From: an uncultured bacterium | GTDB taxonomy: Bacteria; Margulisbacteria; WOR-1; O2-12-FULL-45-9 | Reading direction: 5' to 3' | Assembly: GCA_964568455.1 (NCBI GenBank) | Contig: CAZMPJ010000008.1 | Location: 1,143-65,142, forward strand | Length of the DNA stretch: 64,000 nt | Shown here: piece by piece, positions 6,160-57,483 of the stretch | Position numbering within the stretch: the stretch's first letter is position 1 | How the letters are laid out: every line of letters begins with the position of its first letter | The notes under the pieces: generated by a model | Seen by the model: the letters and a program-made list of their open reading frames with translations, nothing else | The model's database searches: none | Told to the model about the DNA's origin: nothing | Position numbers and translations under genes: made by a program

Positions 6160-6189
6160 TATTTCTGAAAAAAATCGCTGTAATTTCAG
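6160..6189 (-). promoter_or_regulatory. Orphan-regulon promoter-like motif, copy P1
   Basis: On the minus strand it reads CTGAAA-ttacagcgatttttttca(18)-GAAATA. A 13-nt leader containing GAGG then precedes the ATG at 6146. Confidence 0.4.
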
Positions 6190-6232
6190 TGTTTTCCTTC
6201 CTAAATCTTGTTTGATTTAGTATACTTACCAT

Positions 6233-6793
6233 GTGAAATTAATCGCAGGCGTTGATGAAGCAGGTCGCGGTCCTTTAGCTGGACCGATCGTGGCTGCGGC
6301 AGTAATTTTGCCTGAAAAATTTAATCTTGAAGGCCTTAATGATTCAAAACTCTTATCTGAAAAGAAACGAGAAGAACTTTTTCCTCAAATTAAAAAAATT
6401 GCCCTGGCTATTGGCATTGCCAAGGTAAGTCATAAGCGAATAGATAAATTAAATATCCATAAAGCAAATTTATTAGTTATGAAGTTAGCTGTCCAAGCTT
6501 TAGAAATTGAACCAGACTTTCTTTTAATTGACGGGCCAAGACACAAGGTTGATCTTGCTATTGCCCAAAAATCGATTAAACAAGGCGATCGAAAATATGC
6601 TTGTATTGCCGCTGCTTCCATTATTGCGAAAGTTACTCGTGATCGTTTGATGAAACGCTATCATAAAAAGTATCCCCAGTATGGTTTTGCCCAACATAAA
6701 GGTTATGGTACTAAACTTCATTATCAAAATTTAGGCCAACACGGACCTTGCGCTATCCACCGCCACTCATTTTCTCTAGTTGCCTCAAGCTGA
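6233..6793 (+). CDS. rnhB: Ribonuclease HII
   Basis: Contains IAGVDEAGRGPLAGPIVAAAVIL and DSKLL motifs. The start is GTG. Confidence 0.95.
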   Translation: MKLIAGVDEAGRGPLAGPIVAAAVILPEKFNLEGLNDSKLLSEKKREELFPQIKKIALAIGIAKVSHKRIDKLNIHKANLLVMKLAVQALEIEPDFLLIDGPRHKVDLAIAQKSIKQGDRKYACIAAASIIAKVTRDRLMKRYHKKYPQYGFAQHKGYGTKLHYQNLGQHGPCAIHRHSFSLVASS

Positions 6794-6822
6794 CCAATCT
6801 GACCAGATTTGGTCAATTTTTT
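6791..6822 (+). terminator. Rho-independent terminator after rnhB
   Basis: The hairpin tgaccaatct-gacc-agatttggtca (one bulge) is followed by aTTTTTTg. The stem begins at the rnhB stop codon. Confidence 0.6.
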
Positions 6823-6886
6823 GCCTATCTTATGCTTGAATATGGTGGTAATAACATTGCTAATAACTTATTAGGAGGTTTAAGCA

Positions 6887-7393
6887 ATGAAAGATTTAAT
6901 ACCAAATGAATATATTCAAAGAAAAATAATGGTGATTAGGAATAAAAAAGTGATATTAGATAAAGATTTGGCCAAGCTTTATGAGGTTAAGACAAGAGAT
7001 TTAAATAAAGCAGTCACTAGAAACAAAGAGCGTTTTCCTGAAGATTTTATGTTTCGTTTGAATAAAACTGAATTCGAAAACTTGAAGTTCCATTTTGGAA
7101 CATCAAGTTGGGGTGGAACGAGAAAGAAGCCAAGGGCTTTTACGGAGCAAGGAGTTTCGATGCTTTCTTCTGTGCTGAAAAGTAAAAAAGCAATAAAAGT
7201 AAATATTCAAATTATGCGAGTTTTTACACAATTGAGAGAAGTATTATCTAATCATGAAGAAATTAAAAAGAAAATCGAAATAATGGAAAGAAAATATGAC
7301 AAACAGTTTTCGGTTGTTTTTGAGGCTATTAAAACATTAATTTATCCTACGGAAAAACCAAAGAAAATAGGATTTCTTAGGGAGAATGATTAA
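6887..7393 (+). CDS. ORF6N-domain (KilA-N-like) DNA-binding protein
   Basis: IRNKKVILDKDLAKLYEVKTRDLNKAVTRNKERFPEDFMFRL...AFTEQGVSMLSSVL is the typical ORF6N signature. Confidence 0.8.
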   Translation: MKDLIPNEYIQRKIMVIRNKKVILDKDLAKLYEVKTRDLNKAVTRNKERFPEDFMFRLNKTEFENLKFHFGTSSWGGTRKKPRAFTEQGVSMLSSVLKSKKAIKVNIQIMRVFTQLREVLSNHEEIKKKIEIMERKYDKQFSVVFEAIKTLIYPTEKPKKIGFLREND

Positions 7394-7770
7394 TGCGTTG
7401 TCATTTAATAATTATAGTGCTAGCGGTTTTCGTGCTCTCTGCCTGTTCATCTCCTCAAGAAGAAATAATTATTTCAGAAGAAAAAGAAGAAACAACAGAA
7501 ACAGTTCAGCCTTCAAGAGAAGCGGTTTATGTTTATAACCAGCAGCCAGAAACCAATTCTAAACAAATCACTTTAAAAATAAACAACGAAGCCCTTTTGA
7601 TGGCCGAAGGAAGTATGCGACTTTTAGGAGTGGTGGTAGGTGGCAGGAAGAAAGAAGTGCTACTAGAAGTAGCGGGGGTGGGGCGTTTTTTTGGTGAGGG
7701 AGACCGGATTCAGGGTTACCGATTAATCAAAATCAATCAATCCCAAATCATATTAGAAAAGGAGTTATAA
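7393..7770 (+). CDS. Small lipoprotein, possibly a PilP/GspC-like secretin partner
   Basis: Has a lipobox (VLSAC). It shares a TAATG overlap with the upstream gene and lies directly before the secretin. The functional call is weak. Confidence 0.5.
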   Translation: MRCHLIIIVLAVFVLSACSSPQEEIIISEEKEETTETVQPSREAVYVYNQQPETNSKQITLKINNEALLMAEGSMRLLGVVVGGRKKEVLLEVAGVGRFFGEGDRIQGYRLIKINQSQIILEKEL

Positions 7771-8916
7771 ATGAAAAAAGTTTTTTTGGCTGTGCTGCTG
7801 TTTTTCTGCTTGTTTACCCCTCTTGAAGCTGAAGAAATCATTAAAAAGATAGAGTTTGCTGATGCCGCGGTTTTAGATGTGGTGCAAATTTTAGCTAAAC
7901 GAGCCAGTATTGATTTAGTTATTTCCGGTGATGTTGGTTTAATCCAGTCTAAGCGTGCGACTATTAATTTGAAAGATATTACTGGCAGCCAGGCAATCGA
8001 ATATATTTTGCGTACCAATGATATTAATTATGAAATAAGAAAAGGAGCGATCTTAATATCTTTAGATCTTAACCAGGATAAAGGCAAGATAGAAACAGTT
8101 TATTTGAAATATTTAGCCGCAGATAAGGTTTGTGAATTAATTGAAAAGGTAATCCCCAGCATTAAAACTACGGTAGGTGGTAGTGCTAACGCAATTGTTT
8201 TAAAGGGGAAAATTCATCAAATTGAGGAAGCGAAAAATTTAATAGAATCTGTTGATCGACCTGTTCCGCAGATTTTAATCGAAAGCAAGGTTTTGGAAAT
8301 TTCAAAATCAGATTCCACCCGCTTTGGCGTTTCTTATGGTTCTTCCCCAGGTGTAATTCAATTTATCACTGACAAAAACACAAGAAAAACTGCGTTAGCC
8401 CATGATATAAGCACTACGGTGACTGGATTAATTTCTGATGGCAAAGCAAAAATAATTGCCAAGCCCAGGATTGCAACGCTGGATAACCACGAGGCGATTA
8501 TTAATATTGGCAGCCGTATACCTTACGCGGTTCCAGTAACCAATAGTTCTAATTCAATTACCTGGACAGTGGATTATATTGATGCTGGAGTAAAGCTTAA
8601 AATTACGCCCATGCTGGGAGAGGAGGGCTATATCACCACTGCTATTCAGCCTGAAGTTTCTTCGATATCAGAATGGAAAACCACGGCAGCTGGAGAATTC
8701 CCGGTTATTTCTACTCGTAATGCTCAGGCTACTTTAAGGGTGAAAGATGGGGAAACCATTGTAATTGGTGGCTTGCTGTCAGAAACTGATCGTAAAAATG
8801 TTTCTAAATTACCTATTTTAGGCTATTTACCCATAGTTGGTTTCTTGTTTCAAAACGTAACCATTGAAAAAGCAGAAACAGAAATTGTGTTTATGATCAC
8901 TCCGTATGTTATTTAG
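7771..8916 (+). CDS. Outer-membrane secretin (short, STN-type N-terminus)
   Basis: Has a signal peptide, an STN-like IEFADAAVLDVVQILAK...DLVISG, and a C-terminal secretin core: TLRVKDGETIVIGGL...VSKLPILGYLPIVGFLFQN...TEIVFMITP. Confidence 0.85.
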   Translation: MKKVFLAVLLFFCLFTPLEAEEIIKKIEFADAAVLDVVQILAKRASIDLVISGDVGLIQSKRATINLKDITGSQAIEYILRTNDINYEIRKGAILISLDLNQDKGKIETVYLKYLAADKVCELIEKVIPSIKTTVGGSANAIVLKGKIHQIEEAKNLIESVDRPVPQILIESKVLEISKSDSTRFGVSYGSSPGVIQFITDKNTRKTALAHDISTTVTGLISDGKAKIIAKPRIATLDNHEAIINIGSRIPYAVPVTNSSNSITWTVDYIDAGVKLKITPMLGEEGYITTAIQPEVSSISEWKTTAAGEFPVISTRNAQATLRVKDGETIVIGGLLSETDRKNVSKLPILGYLPIVGFLFQNVTIEKAETEIVFMITPYVI

Positions 8917-8918
8917 GA

Positions 8919-9596: not shown

Positions 9597-9625
9597 ATAA
9601 GCATTATAACAGATTTACAAAATAT

Positions 9626-9655
9626 CTGAAATTTTTTGCTTAACTTATCGATAAT
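9626..9655 (+). promoter_or_regulatory. Orphan-regulon promoter-like motif, copy P2
   Basis: Reads CTGAAA-ttttttgcttaacttatc(18)-GATAAT, ending 8 nt before the ATG at 9664, with no SD. Confidence 0.45.
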
Positions 9656-9663: not shown

Positions 9664-10467
9664 ATGAAAGTAACAACTAAACCAGTAAGAGTAATAGTTA
9701 GACAAACTAAAGCTGAAGTGGTGCAGTTTGGTGCCAGAAAATTTGCTGATGTCATGAAGGCCAAGCCTGACTTTGTTGGCGGAGTTGGCACTGGCAGTAC
9801 GCTGGAATCTTGCGGCCGCGAAATAGTAGCTTTAAAGCAAACAGAAGGCATTGATGTTTCCCGCGTCCATCTTTTTGGCTTAGATGAATACCTTGGTTGG
9901 CGTCCTATTGATTTTGAAAGATCATATACCTCTATTTTATGGAACCTCTATTGCCGAGGTATGGGGCTGCCGATTACAAATATGCACTTGCCTTATTGGA
10001 ATACTCAATATCCTCAAATGACCTGTGCCATACTTGAAAATGAAATTGACGAAGCTGGCGGCATTAACCTCCAATTATTAGGCTTAGGTGTTAATGGTCA
10101 TGTTGCTTTTAATGAGCCTGGGGTAGATCCGGCCTTAAAAACCCATGTTGAAGCACTTAGTCAAATAACCAGAACGAGAAATTCAGTCGGGTTTGATACT
10201 CTTGTTCCAGAGCGAGCTATGACACAAGGTATTGCCACTATAAGAAGAGCTACAGCGCTATTATTAATGGCTTATGGAGCAGAAAAAGCTGATGCTGCGC
10301 AGGCCATGTTATTTGCTCCACCCAGCCGGGATTGGCCAGCTTCTTTACTAATGCCTCATCCAGACTTAACAGCAGTATTTGACCTGGAAGCAGCAAGCTT
10401 GTTCCCCACGCCGTATAATCAAGAGGGTGATTACGAGGTAGATTGGCCATGCCAGCATACCGGTTAA
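9664..10467 (+). CDS. Glucosamine-6-phosphate deaminase / 6-phosphogluconolactonase superfamily protein
   Basis: Contains GVGTGSTLE, LFGLDEY and GLGVNGHVAFNEPG motifs. Confidence 0.75.
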   Translation: MKVTTKPVRVIVRQTKAEVVQFGARKFADVMKAKPDFVGGVGTGSTLESCGREIVALKQTEGIDVSRVHLFGLDEYLGWRPIDFERSYTSILWNLYCRGMGLPITNMHLPYWNTQYPQMTCAILENEIDEAGGINLQLLGLGVNGHVAFNEPGVDPALKTHVEALSQITRTRNSVGFDTLVPERAMTQGIATIRRATALLLMAYGAEKADAAQAMLFAPPSRDWPASLLMPHPDLTAVFDLEAASLFPTPYNQEGDYEVDWPCQHTG

Positions 10468-11840
10468 CCAATGTTGGCCAACATATTGCGCAGAGACTTT
10501 GGGATCCCCAATACATTAAAAAGCAAGGCACTGTAAAAGTGGTTAATTCAAATAGTGTTTTTATTATTTCGCCTAGGACATTTGCCGCGTCTACGCTAGC
10601 TTCCCAGTTAAAGATTCAATATACTAGTCCAGAATTTCTCGCAGCCATGGATATTATGAAGGAAGCATTATTTTCTGGAGCAATAAATGATGGAAGCGAA
10701 GAATTAAATTTAGGTCTTTTTAATCAAATGCTTGAAAGTGGATTGTTTGTTGAGGGGACAAGGTTAGGAGAAGAGCCTAATCCAATTGAGTCTATAAGAG
10801 TAATTAACTTTCAGGTAACTTTAAATTGCAACTTAAGCTGTCTTCATTGTAGCAGAGGCAATGCCTCAACAGAACATGAACCAATAGCAAGAGATGTTTT
10901 AGCTGATGCCTTGGAGCAGGCGTACTTAAGCAATGCAATGTGCTCCTTTGCTGTTAATGGTGGGGAGCCAACCTTATTTAAAGGGGATTTGTTTTGGTTA
11001 TTTAAGTTTGCAGCTACTTTAGGGGTTGTTACCCAATTTGTTACCAATGGATGGTGGGGGGATAAACAAGATTTTACTATTTGGGGGCACAAGTTTAAGA
11101 ATGCAGGCGAATTTACTGATAAATTAAGGGCTATTGCGCCGATGTTTGTTCATTTTAGCTTGGATGGGACAGAAGCAATTCATGATCATTTGCGTCAAAA
11201 ACCAGGTAGTTTTAATTCTGCCATTGCTGGGATCAAGGCTGCGCGAGAATCAGGGTTAATTGTAAATACTAATACAGTTAAGCATCCAGATTTAGAAAGC
11301 TTTGAGGACTTGATGAATTATTTAGAAGCTAATTGCGGGTTAAACCCTGATCCTCGTGAGATGAATTTATCTGCGATGGTAAGGACAGGTCAAGCAGCGA
11401 ATAATTTTCCAGTTACTGATCCGATTTATGAAGAAGAATATTTGGACGGGTGCAAAGGCTTTTATTCTCCCACAAATTTGGTTATTGGCTATGATGGCAA
11501 ATTGGGTAGTTGTGGGGTTGCTAGCACTTATGGTGAATTTGGTGATTTAAAAATCCAAACCATGACTGAAATTTTAAATGGCATTCAGGAAACAGCTGCT
11601 TATCAATTACATGTTGGTAAAGATTTGAAGCCGCATCTTCACCTTTTGCCAGAAGATATTTTCCCAATACGCTATAGTAATCCTTGTGAAATGTGGATTC
11701 CTTTGACCATGATTGTAACTAAAATTGACCAAGAAGAAAAAAGGCTTGGTAGGAAATTGTTTCCACAAGAAATCCGGGCTATTCAAGAATATGTGGGCTG
11801 GAGGACGATGTTGGGGAAGTCAGAGAACCCCTTTAGTTGA
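10443..11840 (+). CDS. Radical SAM enzyme with a ~125-aa N-terminal extension
   Basis: Has the CNLSCLHC (CX3CX2C) cluster motif and a GGEPTL SAM-binding motif. Its C-terminal half is Cys-containing. It overlaps the preceding gene by 25 nt. Confidence 0.8.
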   Translation: MAMPAYRLTNVGQHIAQRLWDPQYIKKQGTVKVVNSNSVFIISPRTFAASTLASQLKIQYTSPEFLAAMDIMKEALFSGAINDGSEELNLGLFNQMLESGLFVEGTRLGEEPNPIESIRVINFQVTLNCNLSCLHCSRGNASTEHEPIARDVLADALEQAYLSNAMCSFAVNGGEPTLFKGDLFWLFKFAATLGVVTQFVTNGWWGDKQDFTIWGHKFKNAGEFTDKLRAIAPMFVHFSLDGTEAIHDHLRQKPGSFNSAIAGIKAARESGLIVNTNTVKHPDLESFEDLMNYLEANCGLNPDPREMNLSAMVRTGQAANNFPVTDPIYEEEYLDGCKGFYSPTNLVIGYDGKLGSCGVASTYGEFGDLKIQTMTEILNGIQETAAYQLHVGKDLKPHLHLLPEDIFPIRYSNPCEMWIPLTMIVTKIDQEEKRLGRKLFPQEIRAIQEYVGWRTMLGKSENPFS

Positions 11841-15530: not shown

Positions 15531-15581
15531 CGGAGAATGTCATTATAACATTTGCTATGTTACAATACAATTTAGCGACTT

Positions 15582-16417: not shown

Positions 16418-16954
16418 ATGTCAACCTCAATTATTTTTGCTACTGTTGCCGGTATGGTAATTGGTTCTTTAGTTTTCTATCTAATTATCAGCTATCGCAA
16501 TTGGAAAACTAACATAAAATCTGCTCCGCAAGATCTGTTTGACCGCAAAGCCACCGAAGATTTATTAACCCGCAGTGGTTTTAAGATTTTAAGCGTAAAT
16601 TTAAAACAACCAGTTATCACTAATATAGATGGTAAAGAGCATTATGGTCATGTGGTCGCAGATTATTTAGTTAAAAAGGGTAAAGTTAAATATATTGTGA
16701 TTGTTAAAAAGGGCGAAGCAGAGTTTGATGCGAACGATCCTTTGTTTAGAAGAAGGTTAATTGAATGCTGCCGGGTTTTTAATACACCGGAGGTTTTGCT
16801 GGTTGATCCCAATGATGGGGAAATCCACGTTGTTGGTTTTCGTTATCCGCACGAATGGAGTCTTGATTTCTTTTTTAGGTTTTTATTGGCTGGGTTTATT
16901 GTTTTAGGTCTAATTGGTATAATCTGGTTGTTAGCGTCTATTGGTTTGTTATAG
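16418..16954 (+). CDS. Membrane protein with TM segments at both ends and a soluble middle domain. A PD-(D/E)XK-like nuclease fold is speculative.
   Basis: The N-terminal TM is IIFATVAGMVIGSLVFYLII and the C-terminal TM is LLAGFIVLGLIGIIWLLASIGLL. The core contains HVVADYLVKKGKVKYIVIVKKGE. TATAAT (16406-16411) lies 6 nt before the ATG. Confidence 0.5.
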   Translation: MSTSIIFATVAGMVIGSLVFYLIISYRNWKTNIKSAPQDLFDRKATEDLLTRSGFKILSVNLKQPVITNIDGKEHYGHVVADYLVKKGKVKYIVIVKKGEAEFDANDPLFRRRLIECCRVFNTPEVLLVDPNDGEIHVVGFRYPHEWSLDFFFRFLLAGFIVLGLIGIIWLLASIGLL

Positions 16955-16963
16955 GAGGGAAGC

Positions 16964-17725
16964 ATGAAAACGGTTGGAATAATTTATAAAAAAGAAGACA
17001 GTATTATTGCTGGCACAGCTAAGCAAATAACTAAAGAATTAAAAAAAGCTGGCTATAAAGTTGATTTAAATAAGGCTGATTTTGTAATTACGCTAGGCGG
17101 AGACGGAACTATTCTTCGTGCTAGCCGCATGTTGGCGGAGAAAAAACTGCCCATTCTTGGAATCCATATGGGGGGCTTGGGCTTTTTAACTGAAATAGAT
17201 TTAGAACAGCTTGTGGGTGCTTTGCAAAGGATTAAAAAGAGAAAATATAAAATTGATGAAAGGACCATGATTGAAGCGCAGGTAAACGGTAAAAAATTAT
17301 TAGCTTTAAACGACATTGTTATTAGTAAAAGCGGAATTGCTCGAGTGATTAGACTAGAAGTTGAAGGAATTACAGAATATCTGGCTGACGGCTTAATTTT
17401 TGCTACTGCTACTGGCTCAACTGCCTATAATTTATCAGCTGGTGGTCCATTGCTTGATCCGCATTCGCCTACTATTGTTTTATCTGCTATTTGTCCTCAC
17501 AAGATCAGTATTAGACCGATTGTGTTGGAAAAAGGCGTTTCAGTCACCCTTACTAGAGGGGACAAAGTTATTGTGACTGCTGATGGGCAAAATATGCTGC
17601 CTTTAAAAGTAGGGCAAAAGGTAAAAATCGAAAAATCAAAGCTTAAAACCAAGTTTATCCGTTTGGATGGTTATGACTTTTTTGGGCGAGTAAAACAGGC
17701 GTTTGGGTTTGGTGTCAGGGTTTAA
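16964..17725 (+). CDS. nadK: NAD kinase
   Basis: Contains the GGDGTILRASR motif, then IATATGSTAYNLSAGGP. Confidence 0.9.
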   Translation: MKTVGIIYKKEDSIIAGTAKQITKELKKAGYKVDLNKADFVITLGGDGTILRASRMLAEKKLPILGIHMGGLGFLTEIDLEQLVGALQRIKKRKYKIDERTMIEAQVNGKKLLALNDIVISKSGIARVIRLEVEGITEYLADGLIFATATGSTAYNLSAGGPLLDPHSPTIVLSAICPHKISIRPIVLEKGVSVTLTRGDKVIVTADGQNMLPLKVGQKVKIEKSKLKTKFIRLDGYDFFGRVKQAFGFGVRV

Positions 17726-17951: not shown

Positions 17952-17981
17952 TATATCGACATATTTGGGGTGAAATTTCAG
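17952..17981 (-). promoter_or_regulatory. Orphan-regulon promoter-like motif, copy P3
   Basis: On the minus strand it reads CTGAAA-tttcaccccaaatatgtc(18)-GATATA. A 20-nt leader (tatatagaggggagagtatc) then precedes the ATG at 17931. Confidence 0.45.
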
Positions 17982-17987: not shown

Positions 17988-17996
17988 TGTTATAAT
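17988..17996 (+). promoter_or_regulatory. Extended -10 (TGtTATAAT), 9 nt upstream of the proA ATG
   Basis: The sequence is tgtTATAAT-atttccgac-ATG(18006), with no SD. Confidence 0.45.
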
Positions 17997-19965: not shown

Positions 19966-19970
19966 GTCTT

Positions 19971-20000
19971 TTTATCGGTATATTTGGTGGATAATTTCAG
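19971..20000 (-). promoter_or_regulatory. Orphan-regulon promoter-like motif, copy P4
   Basis: On the minus strand it reads CTGAAA-ttatccaccaaatatacc(18)-GATAAA, ending 5 nt before the ATG at 19965. Confidence 0.45.
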
Positions 20001-21363: not shown

Positions 21364-21393
21364 TTCTTCGGTACCTTTATCAAAAAATTTCAC
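21364..21393 (-). promoter_or_regulatory. Orphan-regulon promoter-like motif, copy P5 (weak -10 half)
   Basis: On the minus strand it reads aaaaaaaGTGAAA-ttttttgataaaggtacc(18)-GAAGAA. The leader carries TATATATAGGAGG. Confidence 0.3.
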
Positions 21394-27536: not shown

Positions 27537-27566
27537 TATATCGTAATATTTAGTAGTTAATTTCAC
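27537..27566 (-). promoter_or_regulatory. Orphan-regulon promoter-like motif, copy P6
   Basis: On the minus strand it reads aaataaaGTGAAA-ttaactactaaatattac(18)-GATATA, ending 7 nt before the ATG at 27529. Confidence 0.45.
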
Positions 27567-41050: not shown

Positions 41051-41080
41051 GTGAAATTTCTGGCCAAAAGTGTCTATATA
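41051..41080 (+). promoter_or_regulatory. Orphan-regulon promoter-like motif, copy P7
   Basis: Reads aagaaaaaGTGAAA-tttctggccaaaagtgtc(18)-TATATA. A 37-nt leader with AAGGAG precedes the ATG at 41118. Confidence 0.45.
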
Positions 41081-41117: not shown

Positions 41118-41624
41118 ATGAGTTACGGACAAATAGGTGGGGTAGGTAATACATCAGGATTAGTGTGGCAATTTTTGAAGTCAGATGGCGGCACCTCAAA
41201 AGAAATTAAATATACTACTCTTACATATACTCATCCTATGGGGACATTAACAATTGCTTTCCCCAAGGGAACACATGTTCCGCAAGAGATAAGAGACATG
41301 GTCTGGAACTGTTCCGACGAGGCAAAAAGAGGAATCCCACAGAATAGGCCTTGGCGGGTTATGATTAGAATATCTGTTCAAAAAGATAAATCAGGAGAAA
41401 TTGTTGAATGGCAGATATTTTCTTCTTGCGCTTATACCTCTTCTGATGGCCAAGAAAAAAGAATTACGGGTAAGGATATGATACAAAAGTGGACTGGTGA
41501 GGCAATTGGCTCGGCGACTTCAAAGAAATACATAGCAAGGCTTCAAGAGGGTGTTAAAGGTGGAGTGTTATGTCACATCGTCCTCCGTGAGTCATTGCGT
41601 TGGCCTGATTTCAAGAAAAAGTGA
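41118..41624 (+). CDS. Orphan protein (168 aa)
   Basis: An ORF with a good SD. I recognise no family. Its last codons and stop (aag aaa aag TGA) are part of motif copy P8. Confidence 0.6.
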   Translation: MSYGQIGGVGNTSGLVWQFLKSDGGTSKEIKYTTLTYTHPMGTLTIAFPKGTHVPQEIRDMVWNCSDEAKRGIPQNRPWRVMIRISVQKDKSGEIVEWQIFSSCAYTSSDGQEKRITGKDMIQKWTGEAIGSATSKKYIARLQEGVKGGVLCHIVLRESLRWPDFKKK

Positions 41625-41650
41625 AATTTTCACTAAAAAGTGTCGATATA
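41621..41650 (+). promoter_or_regulatory. Orphan-regulon promoter-like motif, copy P8
   Basis: Reads aagaaaaaGTGAAA-ttttcactaaaaagtgtc(18)-GATATA. The surrounding ~45 bp are a near-duplicate of copy P7. Confidence 0.45.
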
Positions 41651-44524: not shown

Positions 44525-44554
44525 GTGAAATTTTTCAGGAGAATGGACGATATT
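44525..44554 (+). promoter_or_regulatory. Orphan-regulon promoter-like motif, copy P9
   Basis: Reads GTGAAA-tttttcaggagaatggac(18)-GATATT, ending 5 nt before the ATG at 44560. Confidence 0.45.
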
Positions 44555-47265: not shown

Positions 47266-48183
47266 ATGCCCCTAATTAAACCTTTTGCGCAACTGCCACT
47301 GATGAAGATCAGAAATGTTAAAGTTGATCTTCCTTTAAGTCGAAGAGTTAGTGTTGTCCGCTCAACTGGCATCCCAGCTAAAACTGATCCAGCTCATTTT
47401 GTGCAAACCATGCTGGACTGGGAAGCAAGAATGGGTACAACACATGCGGTGTTAGCAGGCATGATGCTTATGACTGGCACAGCTGAAGTTGATGATGTAA
47501 TTGATGGATTTGAAACCTTTCACCGCATTTATGACAAAGTAGCTCCTTTTATGCAAAACTGCACGCTGACGGAACTAGAACGATTTACAACTTTCTTAAA
47601 AGGTAAATTAAATTTTGCTCCTTTTTATCCTGACTTTTACCTTGGTTTAAAAAGTTTTGAAGCTAATTTAGATGGAGCGGATAAGATAGTGGGGGATTGT
47701 GTTGTTTGCGCGGCAATATATGATTTGCTTTATTCCCAGGCTGGAGGGATAGCTGGGGCAGGCTTTAGAGTTATTGATTTGCATACAAGAGCTTATTTGC
47801 CAGATTTAAATTATAATTTTGAAATTGGCAGCGACGAGCAACCACAAGAGTATTTACGCTTTAAACCAGTTCAATCTACTACACCTTATCTTTTTAGTAG
47901 TATGTTTTCTTTTTTAACCGTAGCTTCTTTGTTGTCAATTATTATGTTTGTTAGAGTGGAGACAGGAGGAAAAGCAAATTACAAGTTACTTTCTGCAGAT
48001 AAGCTTGCTTTTCTCATGAATTGGCTTGAGTGCGCTGAAGCCATAAACCCATATCATATTTGCATTTATTTTAACAAAGAAAATGTTTATGAAGCGACGG
48101 GGAAAAAAGGCGAAGCGGCTTTGCAGGGAACAGTTGTTGATGAGTTGATGGGCTTTGTTGGTCAGCAGATTATAGTGGCTTAG
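47266..48183 (+). CDS. Orphan protein (305 aa) with one predicted TM segment
   Basis: It starts 3 nt after the 900-aa gene's stop. It has a hydrophobic stretch, LFSSMFSFLTVASLLSIIMFV. I recognise no family. Confidence 0.6.
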   Translation: MPLIKPFAQLPLMKIRNVKVDLPLSRRVSVVRSTGIPAKTDPAHFVQTMLDWEARMGTTHAVLAGMMLMTGTAEVDDVIDGFETFHRIYDKVAPFMQNCTLTELERFTTFLKGKLNFAPFYPDFYLGLKSFEANLDGADKIVGDCVVCAAIYDLLYSQAGGIAGAGFRVIDLHTRAYLPDLNYNFEIGSDEQPQEYLRFKPVQSTTPYLFSSMFSFLTVASLLSIIMFVRVETGGKANYKLLSADKLAFLMNWLECAEAINPYHICIYFNKENVYEATGKKGEAALQGTVVDELMGFVGQQIIVA

Positions 48184-49413: not shown

Positions 49414-50479
49414 TCAGAAATAGCTTTTTACCCCCCAGGCAATAGCATTAGCTGTTTTATTTTGAAAAGCAGAAGACCTAGCTAGCTTTTCTTCCTCACT
49501 GTTACTGATAAACAAAGGTTCAATCAAGATTGCCGGCATTTTAGCATGATGAATAGTATAAAACATTGCTCGTCTAAGTCCCCGATCCTTTCTTTTTAAT
49601 CCTCTTACCAGGCTGCGGTGGATGGTTAAACCTAGTCTTCTACTTTTTCTATTATAGTAATAGGTTTCCGTGCCGCGGACCCTTTGGTTATAAAATACAT
49701 TATAGTGGATTGAGATAAATATCAGCCTGGACCTTGTTGGCAAACTTAACAATGTCTCTTAAACTGTTAGTTCTATCATCATTCCTAGTTAAATAAACTG
49801 TTGCCCCTGCAGCTTGCAAGTAATTTGCTACTTTGCGGGCTAAGGGCAGGGTTAAATTCTTTTCCGGGATTTTATGCAGAGAAAAACCGCCCGGATCCCT
49901 TCCGCCATGACCAGGGTCAATCACGATGGTTTTGCCACGCAAAGACTTGTCTTTACTTTTATAGTTAGGCAAATATTTATAAGGCTTAAACGCATCGGTT
50001 TTTTGCTTAAGCATTTTTGTTTCCCAGGCGGCTTGCAGTTCTTTGCTAGGATTTTCTCGGTCATAGAGTTCAACTGAAGTTTTTCCTCGGCCAAAGATGT
50101 TAACTACTTCATAAACCGAATCCTTTTTTAAGCTAATGATGATTTTTGCGGTCTTGCCTGATTGTTTAGCGGCAATACCCTTAATTCGTTTATGACTCCA
50201 GAGTTTTGGTTTTAACCCTGGAGTTATTTTAGTGTTGGGAAATTCAATAATAAGCTGATCTTCAAGCAAGAGCCCTTGTCCCTCAAGGTTGCCAGAACCA
50301 TTAATATTGATGTAGTCAATGTTTAGGTTGCGAACTGCTTCTATTTTAGTTATTTCTGATAAATTAGATGCGGCAGCAGCAGAAATCCAAAATCCAAATA
50401 TCAAAATCCAAATAAATCTAGAAAAAACCAAATCGAAAAAATAATTTATTGATTTGGATTTAAACGATTTATTTGTCAT
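49414..50479 (-). pseudogene. N-acetylmuramoyl-L-alanine amidase (AMIN plus Amidase_3) interrupted by a frameshift
   Basis: Frame A (50479-49700) reads ...IVIDPGHGGRDPG...ANKVQADIYLNPL*. Frame B (49752-49414) continues ...IFISIHYN...GTETYYY...PAILIEPLFISN. The conserved AD(L)FISIH motif is split at about 49715-49723. Confidence 0.7.
50383..50417. repeat. Tandem heptamers (AAATCCA)n inside the amidase 5' coding region
   Basis: The units are AAATCCA-AAATCCA-AATATCA-AAATCCA-AATAAAT. On the coding strand they encode the IWILIFGFWI hydrophobic stretch. Confidence 0.65.
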
Positions 50480-51862: not shown

Positions 51863-53443
51863 GTGAAGAAATCCTCTTTTGAGAGAGGCTTGGTTATAGT
51901 ATTGGTTGCGGCAATCATTGTCGGTGCAATACTATTTTTTACTCAAATTCTTTCTGCAGATGCTTTTACCAAAGAAGAAGCCCAACATGGCCTTTATGGG
52001 CTTTGGATTTATAAAGATATCAACGCTTTAGATGCTAAGGCGTTTTTATATGATACCTCAAGACAACTGGTTTGGCCGTTCTTGCATTCTTGGATTTTGG
52101 GCATTGTTTTTTTTACTTTTGGGCCAAGTACGGTAGTGGCGCGTCTCTTAAGCTTAGCTATGTTTTTGGGGATAGCGGTTTTTATGTACCTGCTTTCTGC
52201 CCACTTTTCTCATAAGATTGGGCAAAAACCAGGGGTAACTGCCGCGCTTTTGGCGCTTTCTTCTCCCCTTTTGATTAGGTTTGGAACGGCTAATATGCTG
52301 GAGGCCTTAGGCGCATTGCTTTTTCTGGCTGCGACTTATGTTTATATGCTTTGTGAAGAGCAAAAAATCACCCTTGAATATGTGTTACTCGCCTTTTTGA
52401 TTGGTTTATCGCTTTACGTCAATTATATTTTTGCTTATTTAATGGTAGCTTCTTTTATGGTGGCGACCGTAGTAAAATTAGTGCCGATTATGATTGGTGC
52501 GATTAAATTGATGAAAAAAGGAGAAAAATCCGCTATTGGTTTTATCTGGTGGGCTTATCGCAAATTAATTGTGCTTTTTGTTGTATTAACTTTGCTGGGA
52601 GTTTGGTTTTCTTTTAATTTCTCCAGAAAAATACTGATTTTGGCCAATACTTTGTTTAGATATTCTTCTGGCGAAAAACTGGTGGGTATTATTCCTAATC
52701 TTTTATATTATCCTAAAGTAATTATTGATCAAGTAACTTTTTCGCCTTGGCTGGGGATTTTGGCCTTGGTTTCTTTGTTTTTGCCTTTTATTGTCCGTCG
52801 CTATGCTAGTTTAAATAAATTGTTTATTTTTGTCTGGACTAGTTTGGTTTTATTGGTTTTTACTATCCCTACCAAATCAGCCCAGTTCCTATATATTATT
52901 GTGCCTTTTATTCTGATAATCTTTAGCGCTACGATTTTTTACTTCAAAGACAAAATTAAACAAAAGAACCCAAAATTAGCCACAGCTTTTTTTACTATTT
53001 TAATTTTACCGGCTTTGTTTTCTTTGCCTAATTTATTTGCAGTCTGGTTTCCGGCTAACTCTGCTTCTAATATGCAGGATGTGCTGCAATATTTTAGCAA
53101 TACTGTGCCAGCTCAAGCAACCATGGTAATACCTTTAAACCTGCAACATTTAAACCCAGAAGTGGTTGAGTTTCATATGGACGGAAGGGCCGGAGCAGTG
53201 ATTACCAATATGGATGAAATTAGTTCAAATGGTAATTATCTGCTTACCATTGAGCTTGATCCAGACAGCAAATATCATCAGGACCTGATTGACGATTCGC
53301 TTTTTAGCTGGAATATTACTTTGCGGGATAAATTAATGCGAGGACAAATCAAACTTTATTCCACCCGCCGCTTTGATGATGTTGGGGTAACTGCCAGGAT
53401 TTTTGAGGAGACCTCAAGTAATCTGTTCAATGGTCTGAATTAA
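51863..53443 (+). CDS. Polytopic membrane protein, probably a GT-C-fold glycosyltransferase (ArnT/PMT-like)
   Basis: It has about 11-13 TM segments followed by a ~120-aa soluble C-terminal domain, an architecture typical of GT-C enzymes. No motif-level proof. Confidence 0.45.
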   Translation: MKKSSFERGLVIVLVAAIIVGAILFFTQILSADAFTKEEAQHGLYGLWIYKDINALDAKAFLYDTSRQLVWPFLHSWILGIVFFTFGPSTVVARLLSLAMFLGIAVFMYLLSAHFSHKIGQKPGVTAALLALSSPLLIRFGTANMLEALGALLFLAATYVYMLCEEQKITLEYVLLAFLIGLSLYVNYIFAYLMVASFMVATVVKLVPIMIGAIKLMKKGEKSAIGFIWWAYRKLIVLFVVLTLLGVWFSFNFSRKILILANTLFRYSSGEKLVGIIPNLLYYPKVIIDQVTFSPWLGILALVSLFLPFIVRRYASLNKLFIFVWTSLVLLVFTIPTKSAQFLYIIVPFILIIFSATIFYFKDKIKQKNPKLATAFFTILILPALFSLPNLFAVWFPANSASNMQDVLQYFSNTVPAQATMVIPLNLQHLNPEVVEFHMDGRAGAVITNMDEISSNGNYLLTIELDPDSKYHQDLIDDSLFSWNITLRDKLMRGQIKLYSTRRFDDVGVTARIFEETSSNLFNGLN

Positions 53444-55114
53444 TTTTAGCAACAGAGGAATTGTTTTTTCGTCTGCTACTTTTCCATAAAACGCGTCTAA
53501 ATGACTGGCTCCGTCTATTAGAAACCCTTGTACTTGGCTAGGGCTTTGGGGTAGCTCAATTTCTTCCACAGAAGTGTCTGCCTTAATATGATGAACGGCG
53601 CAATGATCATGTTGATATTCTGGAAACCTAGAAAAGTCTAAATCAGTGCCATGGGCATAACCTTTGTCTACAAAAGTCAGATTGTATGGGGCGGCCAATG
53701 GATCTTTTGAAAAATAGAGATGGGAAATTGGAATATCGGGCGGAATTTCGTCTAGGTGAGCAGAATAATTAAAACGGCTTTGGTCCATGCGTTTTATGCC
53801 TTGGCCAGAAAAAATTGCACGTAGCATTTGAAAACCAACGCCTAATGGAAAAGAATCAACGCCTTCTTCAATAAGCAAAGAGACAAAAGCCTTTACCTTT
53901 TTAAAGTTATCCGGGTTTATCAATGACTTTAAAGGAAAAAGCTCAAAAGGAATCATCTTGATCAACCACTTTTTCTTAAACTTATCAATAGGAACAGATT
54001 CTTCGCCCAGTATTGGCAAAAGCAAATTTAATGAGAGCAACATTGGGAAAATGTAGTGCTGGCTCTTGTCAAATATGCGGGATGAAGCAATGGATATCAG
54101 TCCTTTTACGGTTTTAAGCATTTCTAGATGAGTTCTTGCTTCGGCGATAATAATTTCTGCTTCCCGATCAGTGCCCATATAGGAATTCATCGCTTCTTCT
54201 ATTTGAGGTCGAGTCATACCTTTTGAATCAATTCCGATTTGTGCTAGCAGTCGGCGTAATTTATATGCTTGGCGCACCAATAAAAATTCTGCTACCATTC
54301 CGCCCATGCTGTGGGCGATGATAATCACTGGTTTATTTGGGGTAGGTCGGTGACAGATAAAATCTAAGCCAGCTGGAAGATCGTTGCTAACCAAGGTATC
54401 AAAGAAACACTGAGGATCAAAATTCCCTTTATTACTCCCCAACCCTCTGAAATCAAATTTATAAACCCAACTACCAATATCAGCCAACAAAAGAGCTAAA
54501 GAAAATTGATCGTTGTTAAGATCAAAAAATTTACCCTTGCAGCCAATGCCAGGAACCAAGAGGATAGATGGGCTGTCATCATTAGTTTTAACTGTTCTTT
54601 GATTAATTAAACGGTTTAACTGTAAAAGAGTGTCATCACGGGTGATTAAAGAATAGGGCCTTTCTAAATATTGTCCTCTTTCTGGTGCCCGGGGTGTGTT
54701 TGTTAGGGCACCGGCAACTTGGGAAAAAAGTACGGAGCTTCTCAGTACTCCATGGCGAGTGGCTTGTTTAATAAAATTTTCTCTTAGAGAAGAATCGATG
54801 TCTAATTCTAACATTAGTTCTGGTATGCGATGCTTGTTAATATAAACTCTTTTGCCGAAATTGTTAAATAAACCGCTTTTATATCCTTCGATAACCGTAT
54901 TTTGGATATCTTCAAGTCTTGGTTCTTCACCAGTTACATCAAGAATAATATGTTGCAGGGTAGGAGCCACTATATAAGCAGCCTGTGTTTCCACTTGTTC
55001 TGGATTCATAACAAAAGCTTTAGGATAGCGTCCTGCCATTGCTTTTAATTTTCCTTGCATGGCTGTGCTGGCCAGTCTGTAGCCTAAGTTTAATCCTCGA
55101 GTAACTATTCCCAT
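53414..55114 (-). CDS. Alpha/beta-hydrolase-fold protein with a ~190-aa unrecognised N-terminal region
   Basis: Contains ILLVPGIGCKG (oxyanion region), the nucleophile elbow IIIAHSMGGMV (GxSxG) and a late GASHLD (candidate His). Motif P10 lies 6 nt before the ATG. Confidence 0.6.
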   Translation of the reverse strand: MGIVTRGLNLGYRLASTAMQGKLKAMAGRYPKAFVMNPEQVETQAAYIVAPTLQHIILDVTGEEPRLEDIQNTVIEGYKSGLFNNFGKRVYINKHRIPELMLELDIDSSLRENFIKQATRHGVLRSSVLFSQVAGALTNTPRAPERGQYLERPYSLITRDDTLLQLNRLINQRTVKTNDDSPSILLVPGIGCKGKFFDLNNDQFSLALLLADIGSWVYKFDFRGLGSNKGNFDPQCFFDTLVSNDLPAGLDFICHRPTPNKPVIIIAHSMGGMVAEFLLVRQAYKLRRLLAQIGIDSKGMTRPQIEEAMNSYMGTDREAEIIIAEARTHLEMLKTVKGLISIASSRIFDKSQHYIFPMLLSLNLLLPILGEESVPIDKFKKKWLIKMIPFELFPLKSLINPDNFKKVKAFVSLLIEEGVDSFPLGVGFQMLRAIFSGQGIKRMDQSRFNYSAHLDEIPPDIPISHLYFSKDPLAAPYNLTFVDKGYAHGTDLDFSRFPEYQHDHCAVHHIKADTSVEEIELPQSPSQVQGFLIDGASHLDAFYGKVADEKTIPLLLKLIQTIEQIT

Positions 55115-55120: not shown

Positions 55121-55150
55121 TCTATCGTTGTTTGTTTTAATAAATTTCAC
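55121..55150 (-). promoter_or_regulatory. Orphan-regulon promoter-like motif, copy P10
   Basis: On the minus strand it reads GTGAAA-tttattaaaacaaacaac(18)-GATAGA, ending 6 nt before the ATG at 55114. Confidence 0.45.
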
Positions 55151-55164: not shown

Positions 55165-55173
55165 TGCTATAAT
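55165..55173 (+). promoter_or_regulatory. Extended -10 (TGcTATAAT), 7 nt upstream of the kinase-like gene's ATG
   Basis: The sequence is tgcTATAAT-atcagcc-ATG(55181). The hexamer 17 nt upstream (55145-55150, TTTCAC) is the complement of P10's GTGAAA. Confidence 0.5.
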
Positions 55174-55180
55174 ATCAGCC

Positions 55181-56185
55181 ATGGAGCGCTTCTTAAAAAG
55201 CCGCTATCGCATTGGTGAAAAACTTTCTGAAAACCCTTTTAGTGTTACTTATAAGGGTTCTTTTCTTGCTACGGATAAACCCTTAGTAATTAAAATTTAC
55301 AAACGTGGGACTTTAAGTTCGGCTTTAATCCGCAGCATGAAACAAAAGGTAAAAGAGCTTTCACATGTTAATTACCACGGTATTGCCAAGTTGATTGATG
55401 GCGATTACGGTTGGCAAGGCTTCTATTATGTAAGAGAGTTTGTGCCAGGTACCAGTTTAAAAGAAGTTATGGAACAACTTGATCAGGATAAAGCAGTTGT
55501 GATTGCCGAAGAAGTTTGTAAAGCCTTAGAGTATGCCCATGCCCGAGGTATTGTCCATGGGGCGATTAGTCCCAATAATATTTTTGTGGATAAAAAAGGC
55601 GTGGTAAAGATTGCTGATTTTGTGATTGAAGGAGAAATTAAAGAAGCCTTTCAACAAAAGGCAGAAAGCGTTTTAAGGGATAGCCGTTATATGTCACCGG
55701 AAGAACTTTTGGGTTATCCCGCTGGAAAAGCTTCGGACATTTATGGTTTAGGTTTGGTTTTATATGAAATGTTGCAGAATAGAAAAGAAGTTAGCTTTAG
55801 CAAAATACAAAAAATCAAACAGCCCTCAGTCTTAAATAGCGAGCTTTTGGCTTCGCTACCCAGATATTTGCAGGAAATTATTAATAAAGCTATGCAAAAA
55901 GACCCCTTGTTGCGCTTTTTAACGGCTAAAGAATTTAGGCAAAGCTTAGAACATAAAAATGTGGTTACTAATCCCAAAGTCCATAAGGATTATATTGATA
56001 TCTTTGAAAACACGGTTACCAGTTACGGTGCAAAGGATATCAGCATTGAAAGTGAAGCAATTGAAGACGTGGGGCAAGTTAAACTGCGCTGGAGCAAAGA
56101 AAAGCATCGGCATTGGATTTTGCTTTTGATTTTGGCTTTAGCCGTGCTTTCTGGCATAGTTTACGCTTTTATGGTGGTTAGATAA
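55181..56185 (+). CDS. PrkC/PknB-like Ser/Thr kinase-fold protein with a C-terminal TM anchor; predicted pseudokinase
   Basis: The kinase fold is recognisable (VIKIYK, YVREFVPG, YMSPEEL, DIYGLGLVLYEML). However, the catalytic loop is VHGAISPNN rather than HRDxKxxN, DFG is DFV, and the Gly loop is degenerate (GEKLSENPFSV). Confidence 0.75.
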   Translation: MERFLKSRYRIGEKLSENPFSVTYKGSFLATDKPLVIKIYKRGTLSSALIRSMKQKVKELSHVNYHGIAKLIDGDYGWQGFYYVREFVPGTSLKEVMEQLDQDKAVVIAEEVCKALEYAHARGIVHGAISPNNIFVDKKGVVKIADFVIEGEIKEAFQQKAESVLRDSRYMSPEELLGYPAGKASDIYGLGLVLYEMLQNRKEVSFSKIQKIKQPSVLNSELLASLPRYLQEIINKAMQKDPLLRFLTAKEFRQSLEHKNVVTNPKVHKDYIDIFENTVTSYGAKDISIESEAIEDVGQVKLRWSKEKHRHWILLLILALAVLSGIVYAFMVVR

Positions 56186-56820
56186 TGCTGATTGGTTTTT
56201 TTAAATATTATTTTATTTATTTAATTTTAATTTCTTCTGCTTTTTGTTTCTTATTGTTAAAGGCAAAGCTTAAACGGCCTTTTCGCTTATTTGCGGTTTT
56301 ATTAATAATCCTTTTTCTTCCTGGTTTAATTGGTTATTTAATAGTAACCAACTATTCTCCCTGGCAAGAAGTAGAAACCCCTAATTTAATTGGAATGGAA
56401 ATTGCCCAAGCAGAAATTACCCTGGGATCGCTCAATTTAAAAAGTGTGGCTGGCGGCACGATTTATGATCCAGAAGTTGACCAAGGCCTGGTTGCGTCGC
56501 AGCGGCCAGACCCAGGTGTTAAGGTTAAAGCCGGCCGTTTAGTGACTATTTTTGTTAGTTCTGGAAAAAGAAAGGTTATTGTTCCAAACCTTTTAGGAAG
56601 AAGGCTGGAACAGATTGAGGCAGTACTTAGGGCAAAAAATTTAAGCTTGGGTCAAATGAATCATCAGGTTACAGAAGGGGCCAGCCCTGGTATAATTTTA
56701 GAACAAAGCCCACTGCCCGGTGAAGAAGTGGAAATTATGACCATGATTGATATTACCATTGTTACTTCGCCAGAGGCGGAGGGAGCAGAGACAAAAGAGG
56801 GAGGGTTCTGGTTTTGGTAA
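56185..56820 (+). CDS. Membrane-anchored protein with two PASTA domains
   Basis: Two N-terminal TM segments are followed by two PASTA repeats (PNLIGMEIAQAEITLGSLNL... and PNLLGRRLEQIEAVLRAKNLSLG...). It shares a TAATG overlap with the kinase-like gene. Confidence 0.8.
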   Translation: MLIGFFKYYFIYLILISSAFCFLLLKAKLKRPFRLFAVLLIILFLPGLIGYLIVTNYSPWQEVETPNLIGMEIAQAEITLGSLNLKSVAGGTIYDPEVDQGLVASQRPDPGVKVKAGRLVTIFVSSGKRKVIVPNLLGRRLEQIEAVLRAKNLSLGQMNHQVTEGASPGIILEQSPLPGEEVEIMTMIDITIVTSPEAEGAETKEGGFWFW

Positions 56821-57449
56821 AAATTAAAATAGCACCGTCAATCTTGTCAGCTGACTTTAGTAATTTAGAAAAAGAAATTAAAAAAGTTGAAAAAGCTGGC
56901 GCCGATTATATTCACATTGATGTAATGGACGGCCATTTTGTACCTAATATTACCATGGGGCCGTTGGTGGTTAAGGCGGTTAAAAAATGCAGCAAACTTC
57001 CTCTTGACGTACACTTAATGATTGAAAACCCGGATAAATATATTGAATCTTTTGCTAAAGCCGGAGCAGATATTATTACCATTCAAGTTGAGGCTTCTAC
57101 TGATATTACCAGAGACATTGAGTTAATTAAAAAGCATGGAGCTAAACCCGGACTTGTGGTTAACCCGGAAACTGCGATTGATAAAGTTTTTCCTTATCTA
57201 GATAAAATTGATATGGTTTTGGTTATGTCAGTTCACCCGGGATTTGCAGGGCAAAAGTTTATGGCAGAGGTTTTACCCAAGATTAAGCAGCTTAGAGAGA
57301 AAACTGATATTGAGATAGAGATTGATGGTGGAATTAGCTTAGAAACCGCGCCTTTGGCAATCCAAGCTGGCGCCAATGTTCTAGTGGCCGGATCAGCCAT
57401 CTTCTACAGCAAGGATTATAAGCAGGTTATCAAGCAGTTAAAAGCCTAA
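56814..57449 (+). CDS. rpe: Ribulose-phosphate 3-epimerase
   Basis: Contains IAPSILSADF, HIDVMDGHFVPN, VHPGFAGQKF and DGGI motifs. The start is TTG. Confidence 0.95.
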   Translation: MVKIKIAPSILSADFSNLEKEIKKVEKAGADYIHIDVMDGHFVPNITMGPLVVKAVKKCSKLPLDVHLMIENPDKYIESFAKAGADIITIQVEASTDITRDIELIKKHGAKPGLVVNPETAIDKVFPYLDKIDMVLVMSVHPGFAGQKFMAEVLPKIKQLREKTDIEIEIDGGISLETAPLAIQAGANVLVAGSAIFYSKDYKQVIKQLKA

Positions 57450-57453
57450 TTAT

Positions 57454-57483
57454 CTGAAATTTTCCAAATTTTATCCCGATATT
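57454..57483 (+). promoter_or_regulatory. Orphan-regulon promoter-like motif, copy P11
   Basis: Reads CTGAAA-ttttccaaattttatccc(18)-GATATT, ending 5 nt before the ATG at 57489. Confidence 0.45.

Follow-up and report, generated by a model that had tools for sequence, protein, structure and literature searches.

A candidate second promoter class ahead of orphan genes in a Margulisbacteria genome fragment

A recurrent intergenic motif and the genes behind it

The DNA described here is a 64,000-nucleotide (nt) stretch, hereafter called the window, of contig CAZMPJ010000008.1 (assembly GCA_964568455.1) from an uncultured marine bacterium of the Margulisbacteria, the uncultured sister lineage of Cyanobacteria. 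It is 95% coding, leaving 3,252 non-coding bases, and its 35–37 transcription units comprise recognizable housekeeping genes, such as aroC, proA, dut, def, and ribD, together with a dispersed group of orphan genes. An earlier note, drawn from the letters alone, had listed eleven copies of a promoter-like motif, mostly upstream of such orphans, and had proposed that a dedicated sigma factor serves them. The motif, sTGAAATT(t)-N16-(C)GATAww, is treated here as a putative second promoter class and named class B. A literature search returned nothing on promoters, sigma factors, or leaderless mRNAs of Margulisbacteria.

A search of both strands of the window for STGAAA-N18-GATA gave eight exact matches, at the coordinates first reported (Table 1), compared with 0.34 +/- 0.62 expected from 100 dinucleotide shuffles, none of which contained eight. 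All eight are intergenic and oriented toward a start codon less than 90 nt away. When the spacer was varied from 12 to 24 nt, N18 yielded the eight matches and every other length zero or one, bearing out the claim of an exact 18-nt spacing; in 11 related loci, N18 gave 16 matches against 0–4 at other spacings. The site sequences also agree with the description of the flanking bases, the TGAAATT extension being present in all 11 listed copies and a C preceding GATA in eight of them. The same sites were recovered independently by a repeat search, as the short repeat families D8 and D12.

A weight matrix was trained on the eight exact window sites only and used with a 14-bit cut-off. It assigned 26.6 bits to the copy at 41051 (+), which has the variant CTATATA, and 21.3 bits to that at 21364 (-), which has the variant CGAAGAA. 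The copy at 6160..6189 (-), CTGAAATT...AGAAATA before a 222-amino-acid (aa) orphan (5478-6146), reached 11.5 bits, which is noise level given that a coding false positive reached 16.9, and again fell below 14 bits in a second scan; it is not supported as a class-B member. Ten of the eleven claimed copies therefore stand, eight as exact matches and two by their matrix score, and the remaining one is unsupported. Class B accounts for approximately 10 of the 35–37 transcription units, with a density of about one site per 6–12 kb that implies at least 100 promoters per genome.

The best window match after the supported sites is a coding-sequence match inside smpB. This motif-like sequence (28996-29025, +), GTGAAATTAATTGG...CCGAAAAAG, scores up to 20 bits and is kept at the same place in seven related loci (L014, L016, L099, L100, L101, L103, and L104). 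Conservation as coding sequence is the probable explanation, although the genes downstream and the transfer-messenger RNA (tmRNA) may be served by an internal promoter here.

The motif stands mainly before unassignable genes, as had been claimed: the first gene lacks a recognizable domain in eight of the 10 class-B units and in three of the 25 others (Fisher p = 2.6e-4, approximately 35 transcription units). Proteins of 69, 246, 225, 530, 168, 278, approximately 900, and 859 aa, which make up most class-B first genes, had no match in Pfam, NCBIfam, or PADLOC, nor did the 192-, 721-, and 305-aa partners in the same units; the 69-aa open reading frame (ORF) has no Pfam match, and the 246-aa protein has none in PDB either. 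NCBIfam and PADLOC searches with ten of the orphans returned nothing and hence no sign of a defence system, and PDB sequence searches with the 222- and 721-aa proteins also returned nothing. Recognizable content among class-B targets is confined to the NagB-like/radical-SAM pair, the alpha/beta-hydrolase domain of the 566-aa protein, and the TPR protein that follows the 859-aa gene.

The approximately 900-aa and 859-aa proteins form a paralogous pair, sharing 28% identity along 761 aa. Among 5.8 billion proteins, the 859-aa protein matches itself and one relative of 63% identity, and the 530-aa protein matches itself alone. An exhaustive HMMER profile search of 1.84 billion representative proteins placed the 859/900-aa family in 39 clusters, and Pfam applied to 30 of its members gave one NOV_C as the sole match; scans of GTDB genomes and metagenome contigs with the 859-aa family found nothing. 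A PDB profile search detected only an N-terminal TPR-like stretch in this family. The AlphaFold2 model of the 859-aa protein, built from three sequences, has a predicted local distance difference test (pLDDT) score of 46.8 and is confident only in its first ~140 residues, which are helical.

Proteins of class-B units are poor in lysine (median 5.7% vs 10.3% in the others; Mann–Whitney p = 1e-4) and slightly richer in arginine, with GC content and third-position GC (GC3) equal to the rest. They also diverge more rapidly than the proteins encoded next to them: between the window and the sister species L102, identity is 77% for the 721-aa protein and 94% for the M16 peptidase. Weak similarity links the 530- and 721-aa orphans (23778-27529, -), with 24% identity along 185 aa (E 4e-7), and each has repeated stretches of the form [RK]xxLRxxLGLP.

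A further class-B promoter is predicted in L001 at 89-118 (+), approximately 1.1 kb to the left of the window, and reads ATGAAATTT...CGATATATATAG followed by a Shine–Dalgarno (SD) sequence. It serves a gene for a 708-aa GGDEF protein, the 3' part of which occupies window positions 5-1057. Through this predicted promoter, cyclic di-GMP (c-di-GMP) synthesis would be linked to the class-B set.

The site at 41621 had been assigned to the gene of the 278-aa protein, but a terminator-ended unit of approximately 60 nt intervenes, and that gene is not driven directly. The unit is a candidate small RNA with CAUACCU near its 5' end and a terminator hairpin whose loop, GCCUGUU, is followed by a U-run. 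Its 5' part is single-stranded and includes ACCUUAAUyCACC in three lineages. Orthologues behind the same promoter occur in three related loci, where the RNA sits between proB and proA and points away from proA. Compensatory changes are found in four of the eight hairpin pairs. The covariance model gave E-values of 1e-9 to 1e-13 on its own four building sequences and found no further copy, and no Rfam family corresponds to the RNA. Its promoter region (41608-41652) and the neighbouring 41051 site share 82% identity along 45 nt, and both belong to repeat family D8.

At six sites (9626, 19971, 27537, 44525, 55121, and 57454), GATAxx ends 5–8 nt before the ATG and there is no SD sequence, which confirms the leaderless-type geometry described before. 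Leaderless starts are not specific to class B because approximately ten housekeeping promoters of the TGnTAtAAT type also end 6–11 nt before the ATG without an SD sequence; SD sequences are present at operon-internal genes. Together these geometries suggest that leaderless mRNAs are widespread in this Margulisbacterium.

The housekeeping signals that had been distinguished from the motif are all present. Extended -10 elements of the TGnTAtAAT type read TGCTATAAT before aroC, rplS, and pkn, TGTTATAAT before proA, def, the SLT gene, and the AbpE-like gene, TGGTATAAT before dut, and TGCTACAAT before ribD. TTGACT-N17-TATAAT precedes rpsP and the gene at 51863, and TTGACA-N17-TAAATT precedes nrdR. 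The two types can adjoin, the 17952 site being back to back with the proA promoter and the 55121 site divergent from the leaderless-type promoter of pkn.

Table 1. Predicted promoters, candidate small RNAs, and motif-preceded genes. Positions refer to the window unless a related locus is named; TGnTAtAAT positions are given among others.
Feature	Position	Strand	Support	Element and distance	Downstream gene or genes
Class-B promoter	9626..9655	+	exact match, 9626+	CTGAAATT-N16-CGATAAT; 8 nt before ATG at 9664, no SD	NagB-like 9664-10467 (Pfam Glucosamine_iso), radical-SAM 10443-11840 (Pfam Radical_SAM)
Class-B promoter	17952..17981	-	exact match, 17954-	CTGAAATTT-N-CGATATATATATAG, then SD	69-aa ORF (17722-17931, -)
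Class-B promoter	19971..20000	-	exact match, 19973-	5 nt before ATG; leaderless geometry	246-aa orphan (19225-19965, -)
Class-B promoter	21364..21393	-	matrix	variant -10, GTGAAATTTTTTGA...CGAAGAAT; SD-led	operon of 225-aa orphan 20650-21327 and 192-aa orphan 20037-20615
Class-B promoter	27537..27566	-	exact match, 27539-	7 nt before ATG; leaderless geometry	530-aa orphan 25937-27529, then 721-aa orphan 23778-25943, -
Class-B promoter	41051..41080	+	matrix	variant -10 CTATATA; SD-led	168-aa orphan (41118-41624)
Class-B promoter	41621..41650	+	exact match, 41621+		short terminator-ended RNA
Class-B promoter	44525..44554	+	exact match, 44525+	5 nt before ATG at 44560; leaderless geometry	~900-aa orphan 44560-47262, then 305-aa orphan 47266-48183
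Class-B promoter	55121..55150	-	exact match, 55123-	6 nt before ATG; leaderless geometry	566-aa alpha/beta-hydrolase-domain protein (53414-55114)
Class-B promoter	57454..57483	+	exact match, 57454+	5 nt before ATG; leaderless geometry	859-aa orphan 57489-60068, then 331-aa TPR protein 60074-61069
Candidate small RNA, ~60 nt	41656-41717	+		behind 41621 class-B promoter	278-aa orphan (41734-42570)
Small-RNA orthologue	L018 6072-6130	-		same promoter	
Small-RNA orthologue	L099 7845-7916	-		same promoter	
Small-RNA orthologue	L103 8014-8072	-		same promoter	
TGnTAtAAT promoter	1067-1075				aroC
TGnTAtAAT promoter	9603-9611	-			AbpE-like gene
TGnTAtAAT promoter	15542-15550	-			SLT gene
TGnTAtAAT promoter	17988-17996			TGTTATAAT	proA
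TGnTAtAAT promoter	27626-27634				dut
TGnTAtAAT promoter	30704-30712				def
TGnTAtAAT promoter	55165-55173			TGCTATAAT	pkn
TGnTAtAAT promoter	61088-61096				ribD
Motif-preceded gene	L016				308-aa orphan
Motif-preceded gene	L018, L103				142-aa orphan
Motif-preceded gene	L099				908-aa TPR protein
Motif-preceded genes	L104				209-, 165-, and 200-aa orphans, TPR protein
Motif-preceded genes (class-B-like, no Pfam match)	L105 (WOR-1)				428-, 224-, and 262-aa orphans

Conservation in related loci and insertion junctions

Without exception, the best-ranking named homologues of the M16 peptidase belong to Candidatus Margulisiibacteriota, Margulisbacteria, Saganbacteria, or WOR-1, and in a genome scan the CCA-adding enzyme was 71% identical to that of Ca. 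Saganbacteria and 63% identical to that of Ca. Margulisiibacteriota. The contig itself, approximately 78 kb long, recurs in marine metagenome assemblies (JGI, ENA, and Logan), the names of which hint at samples from the Cariaco Basin and oxygen-minimum zones. For comparison, a syntenic contig of a relative (L013; CCA enzyme 67%, 859-aa protein 63%, and 566-aa protein 52% identical), the sister species L102, and eight further loci around M16 orthologues of approximately 66–69% identity were available; the eight have a GC content of 39–52%, and one is from a metagenome-assembled genome (MAG) of candidate division WOR-1.

Orthologous sites are kept while the spacer drifts. Before the 859-aa orthologue of L013, GTGAAATTTT...CCCGATATT and the 5-nt distance to the ATG are retained and the spacer differs; before its 566-aa orthologue, GTGAAATT is kept, with CGAATAAT, and an extra class-B site precedes its TPR gene. 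L102 retains both elements of the 21364 site, including the odd -10 element CGAAGAAT, with a changed spacer. In 185 kb of other Margulisbacteria, 17 intergenic sites that face a gene score 16 bits or more with the window-trained matrix, whereas it reached a maximum of 15.0 bits in a negative control of 936 kb, consisting of metagenome loci from other phyla with M16 genes approximately 40% identical. With unchanged spacing, candidate class-B promoters recur in about 185–200 kb of sequence from other Margulisbacteria and a WOR-1 (Saganbacteria-related) MAG. The parts that are invariant across lineages are sTGAAAT and GATA(A/T); the C of CGATA is replaced by T in L104 and by G in L105 and at the 142-aa gene of L018 and L103. 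In L105, ten consecutive G in the spacer of the class-B-like promoter ahead of the 262-aa gene (16926-17714, -) bring the spacing to 19 rather than 18; an assembly artefact or slipped-strand phase variation could account for this.

Loci of the phylum (L016, L018, L099, L100, L101, L103, L104, and L105) share the conserved gene order proB-proA-nadD-M16-dut-dapB-smpB. Lineage-specific genes interrupt this order one or two at a time, for the most part in opposite orientation, and these inserted genes carry the motif (Table 1). In the window, the genes for the 246-, 192-, and 225-aa proteins lie between proA and nadD (19225-21327), and those for a DUF559 protein and the 721- and 530-aa proteins lie between M16 and dut (23355-27529). 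The proA-nadD and M16-dut junctions are read as insertion hot spots because the orphans found there differ from lineage to lineage. New relative to the earlier note are the recurrence of the motif across Margulisbacteria and WOR-1, its association with inserted accessory genes and a small RNA, and the generality of leaderless starts in this organism.

Two smaller observations concern the insertions themselves. The DUF559 (Vsr-like endonuclease) gene (23355-23690, +) has a GC content of 27%, compared with 39% for the window, and is probably a recent insertion, given that the sister species L102 lacks it at this junction. In L099, a stretch at 7768-7850 (-), beside the inserted gene for the 908-aa TPR protein, resembles the 3' end of L018 proB and may be a remnant duplicated at insertion.

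Candidate readers of the motif

In its position, its spacing, and its coexistence with TGnTAtAAT and TTGACw-N17-TAtAAT signals, the motif has the properties of a two-part promoter separate from the housekeeping class, in agreement with the earlier proposal. The ten supported copies are described as a putative second promoter class, which is somewhat more likely than not to be read by an alternative sigma-70-family factor. This sigma-specific reading is favoured because the spacing is exact to the base, the two elements are placed as -35 and -10 relative to the leaderless starts, orthologous sites are conserved while their spacers drift, and a housekeeping class coexists in the same genome. The -10-like placement, 5–8 nt from the ATG, matches that of TGnTATAAT at aroC, dut, def, proA, ribD, and pkn.

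Under this proposal, RNA polymerase carrying the alternative factor, and not the primary sigma, would read class B, with sigma region 4 contacting GAAATTT at about -34 to -28 and region 2/3 contacting (C)GATA at about -13 to -9. Transcription would start 6–8 nt after the -10 element. For six window units, the start would coincide with the A of the ATG and give a leaderless mRNA, while the remaining class-B transcripts would carry a Shine–Dalgarno leader or be the small RNA itself. Under a particular condition or at a particular stage, the factor would activate all of these accessory genes together.

Sigma-28 had been named as the closest known consensus, and the FliA clade to which it belongs is a tentative, narrower assignment that we hold to be possible and appreciably less secure than the involvement of an alternative factor as such. 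FliA-clade factors have programmes outside motility in several bacteria. The late genes of Chlamydia are under a FliA-clade sigma. In Rubrobacter, a FliA-clade sigma controls non-flagellar genes, including those for pili and c-di-GMP enzymes, and WhiG of Streptomyces likewise has a non-flagellar programme (PMC8325347). Published work places flagellins in some Margulisbacteria, together with FlgV, which is co-conserved with sigma-28. The sigma-28 consensus is TAAAGTTT-N11-GCCGATAA (PMC2859248), and the elements of the Pseudomonas aeruginosa fliC promoter lie at -36..-30 and -15..-8 (PMC12784957). The register of fliC gives 17 nt between AAA and CGATAA and about 7 nt from -10 to +1, and both values fit class B, in which the start is predicted about 6–9 nt beyond the -10 element and all eight exact window sites read GAAA-N17-CGATA. 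Both promoters are bipartite, with an AAA core followed by a T-run in the -35 element; CGATA(A/T), resembling the -10 core of sigma-28 promoters, is present in eight window sites, and the variants CGAAGA and CTATAT also occur.

Several points weigh against this proposal, in its broad or its narrow form. No gene for a sigma or anti-sigma factor was found in the window or in the annotated related loci, approximately 270 kb of the phylum, and none of the approximately 27 target units in the same sequence is a flagellar or chemotaxis unit; the class-B targets are orphan and TPR proteins and a small RNA, and no pilus gene is among them. The -35 element reads (C/G)TGAAATT(T) rather than TAAA(GTTT), so that its first base is G in every class-B site and not the T of sigma-28. 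In the aer promoter of Escherichia coli, a change of this T to C reduces sigma-28-dependent activity to background (PMC2859248). The extended -10 GC of GCCGATAA is absent, the two bases before CGATA being unconserved, and the C of CGATA varies by lineage. The closeness to sigma-28 holds for the spacing and the GATA core, and fails for the first -35 base, the constancy of the C, and the kind of target. The site density is much above that of known FliA regulons, and approximately 10 of 35–37 transcription units is a high share for a regulon of this type. Recognition by the primary sigma is compatible with the motif, given that sTGAAA matches TTGACA at four of six positions and GATAAT matches TATAAT at five of six, with an 18-nt spacer. 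Finally, the promoters are predicted from sequence features and so are their starts.

Among the other explanations, an extracytoplasmic function (ECF, group 4) sigma factor instead of a FliA-type one is an unlikely reader. Promoters of the Bacillus sigma-W/X/M type have the form TGAAAC-N16-CGTA, and class B shares with them TGAAA in a -35 element that agrees at five of six positions, the identical 16-nt spacer after the hexamer, and a -10 element that begins with CG in the sites of this genome; among alternative sigmas, moreover, ECF factors form the largest group, and envelope or accessory functions are often under their control. However, the diagnostic AAC is AAT in every class-B site, the -10 element is (C/T/G)GATA and not CGT, and about 270 kb of sequence from the phylum contained no autoregulated sigma/anti-sigma operon, while the density and promoter number given above are large for an ECF regulon. 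That class B consists of primary-sigma promoters, perhaps activator-dependent, with a near-consensus -35 element, an 18-nt spacer, and a weak -10 element (GATAwt), all in one continuum with the housekeeping classes in which accessory genes happen to have the weaker promoters that depend on the -35 element, seems similarly doubtful. In Actinobacteria and Deinococcus-Thermus, primary sigma-70 promoters give leaderless mRNAs, and class B resembles them in placing a -10-like hexamer 5–8 nt before an ATG without an SD sequence, a distance that fits a hexamer at -12..-7. A is found at -11 in all sites, and a generic sigma-70 scan listed 9626-9655 as CTGAAA-18-GATAAT with nine of 12 matches. Yet G is invariant at the first -10 position in about 27 sites from several lineages, whereas T is the base that a primary sigma strongly favours there. 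Class B also departs from the standard form (TATAAT with T at -12, TTGACA, and 17 +/- 1 nt) in a -35 element that matches at four of six positions, in -35 conservation that extends over 8–9 bases (sTGAAATTT) and thus beyond a hexamer, in a spacer of exactly 18 nt, and in its gene set; the canonical TTGACw-N17-TAtAAT promoters of rpsP, the gene at 51863, and nrdR make the primary sigma of this genome look ordinary.

Two further explanations leave the motif without a -35 function of its own. The upstream element, which often reads TGAAATTTCA, a 10-bp palindrome, would be the operator of a dimeric regulator, and GATAww alone the promoter proper; several sites do read TGAAATTTC(A/G), for example, 17981-, 41051+, 41621+, and those of L001, L018, and L099. 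This is improbable, as the palindrome is incomplete in most sites, its second half being missing at 9626, 19971, 27537, and 55121, and the element sits at the -35 place at a base-exact distance from GATA, as expected for one protein reading both. Less probable still is a motif that marks the end of a mobile gene cassette, as a recombination site or repeat, and carries no transcription signal. The motif-preceded genes do sit at insertion hot spots inside the proB-proA-nadD-M16-dut order, but the repeat search shows only promoter-sized similarity of 30–45 nt, finding neither longer repeats in the flanks nor a second end of a cassette, and no integrase or transposase adjoins the window sites. The motif is also found before an RNA conserved in the phylum and keeps a fixed distance of 5–8 nt to start codons.

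If an alternative sigma factor does read class B, dozens of orphan genes that are refractory to homology searches would form one co-regulated set and point to a lifestyle or host-interaction programme. Class B would also provide a test case for drift of a sigma-28-like specificity, with T changed to G in the -35 element and the extended -10 element lost, and for its re-use outside motility. TGnTAtAAT and sTGAAATT-N16-CGATAw provide two explicit models with which MAGs can be searched for promoters, leaderless translation is predicted to be widespread in the phylum, and the candidate small RNA is a further gain from the analysis.

The most far-reaching version of the alternative-sigma proposal is an accessory-genome sigma with sigma-28-like geometry but a specificity of its own, shared by Margulisbacteria and WOR-1/Saganbacteria, that gates as a single programme the fast-evolving, lysine-poor, lineage-specific proteins, many of them with TPR modules and inserted as single cassettes at hot spots, along with the small RNA and a c-di-GMP synthase, the proteins acting as exported effectors or surface factors in interaction with a host or partner; taken as a whole, we consider it unlikely. 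Low lysine content, polar basic N-termini, TPR partners, rapid divergence, and insertion at hot spots are, speculatively, compatible with such a programme, and export of the class-B proteins is likewise speculation. The host or partner is invoked because it fits the symbiotic habits of Ruthmannia and Termititenax and the secretion coupled to sigma-28 in Campylobacter. Termititenax is a symbiotic member of the Margulisbacteria, and Campylobacter couples sigma-28 to the secretion of non-flagellar proteins. Marinamargulisbacteria with an intracellular life are known, and Ruthmannia lives inside cells of Trichoplax (PMC6784892).

Further features of the window

A tmRNA gene lies downstream of smpB (29884-30312, +), and its predicted tag, ADEKQAARVGGRSVQDLMDLCSAPAEMALAV, is unusually long. 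Between smpB and the tmRNA gene is a gene for a 152-aa protein without a recognizable domain, and in other Margulisbacteria loci smpB is followed by a gene for a 155–163-aa protein that also lacks one.

Behind nrdR, two genes for anaerobic ribonucleotide reductase (NrdD) are arranged in tandem (32697-34793 and 34786-36888, +), and their DNA is 69–81% identical over most of its length. An Amidase_3 gene (AmiC-like, with an AMIN domain; 49414-50479, -) is split into two overlapping ORFs, 49700-50479 and 49414-49752, and is intact as one 340-aa gene in L013; the split would reflect a frameshift, a pseudogene, or an assembly error. In addition, a 404-aa protein encoded at 3404-4618 (+) combines TrmD with a further RNA methyltransferase domain in one fusion (tRNA_m1G_MT plus Methyltrn_RNA_4).

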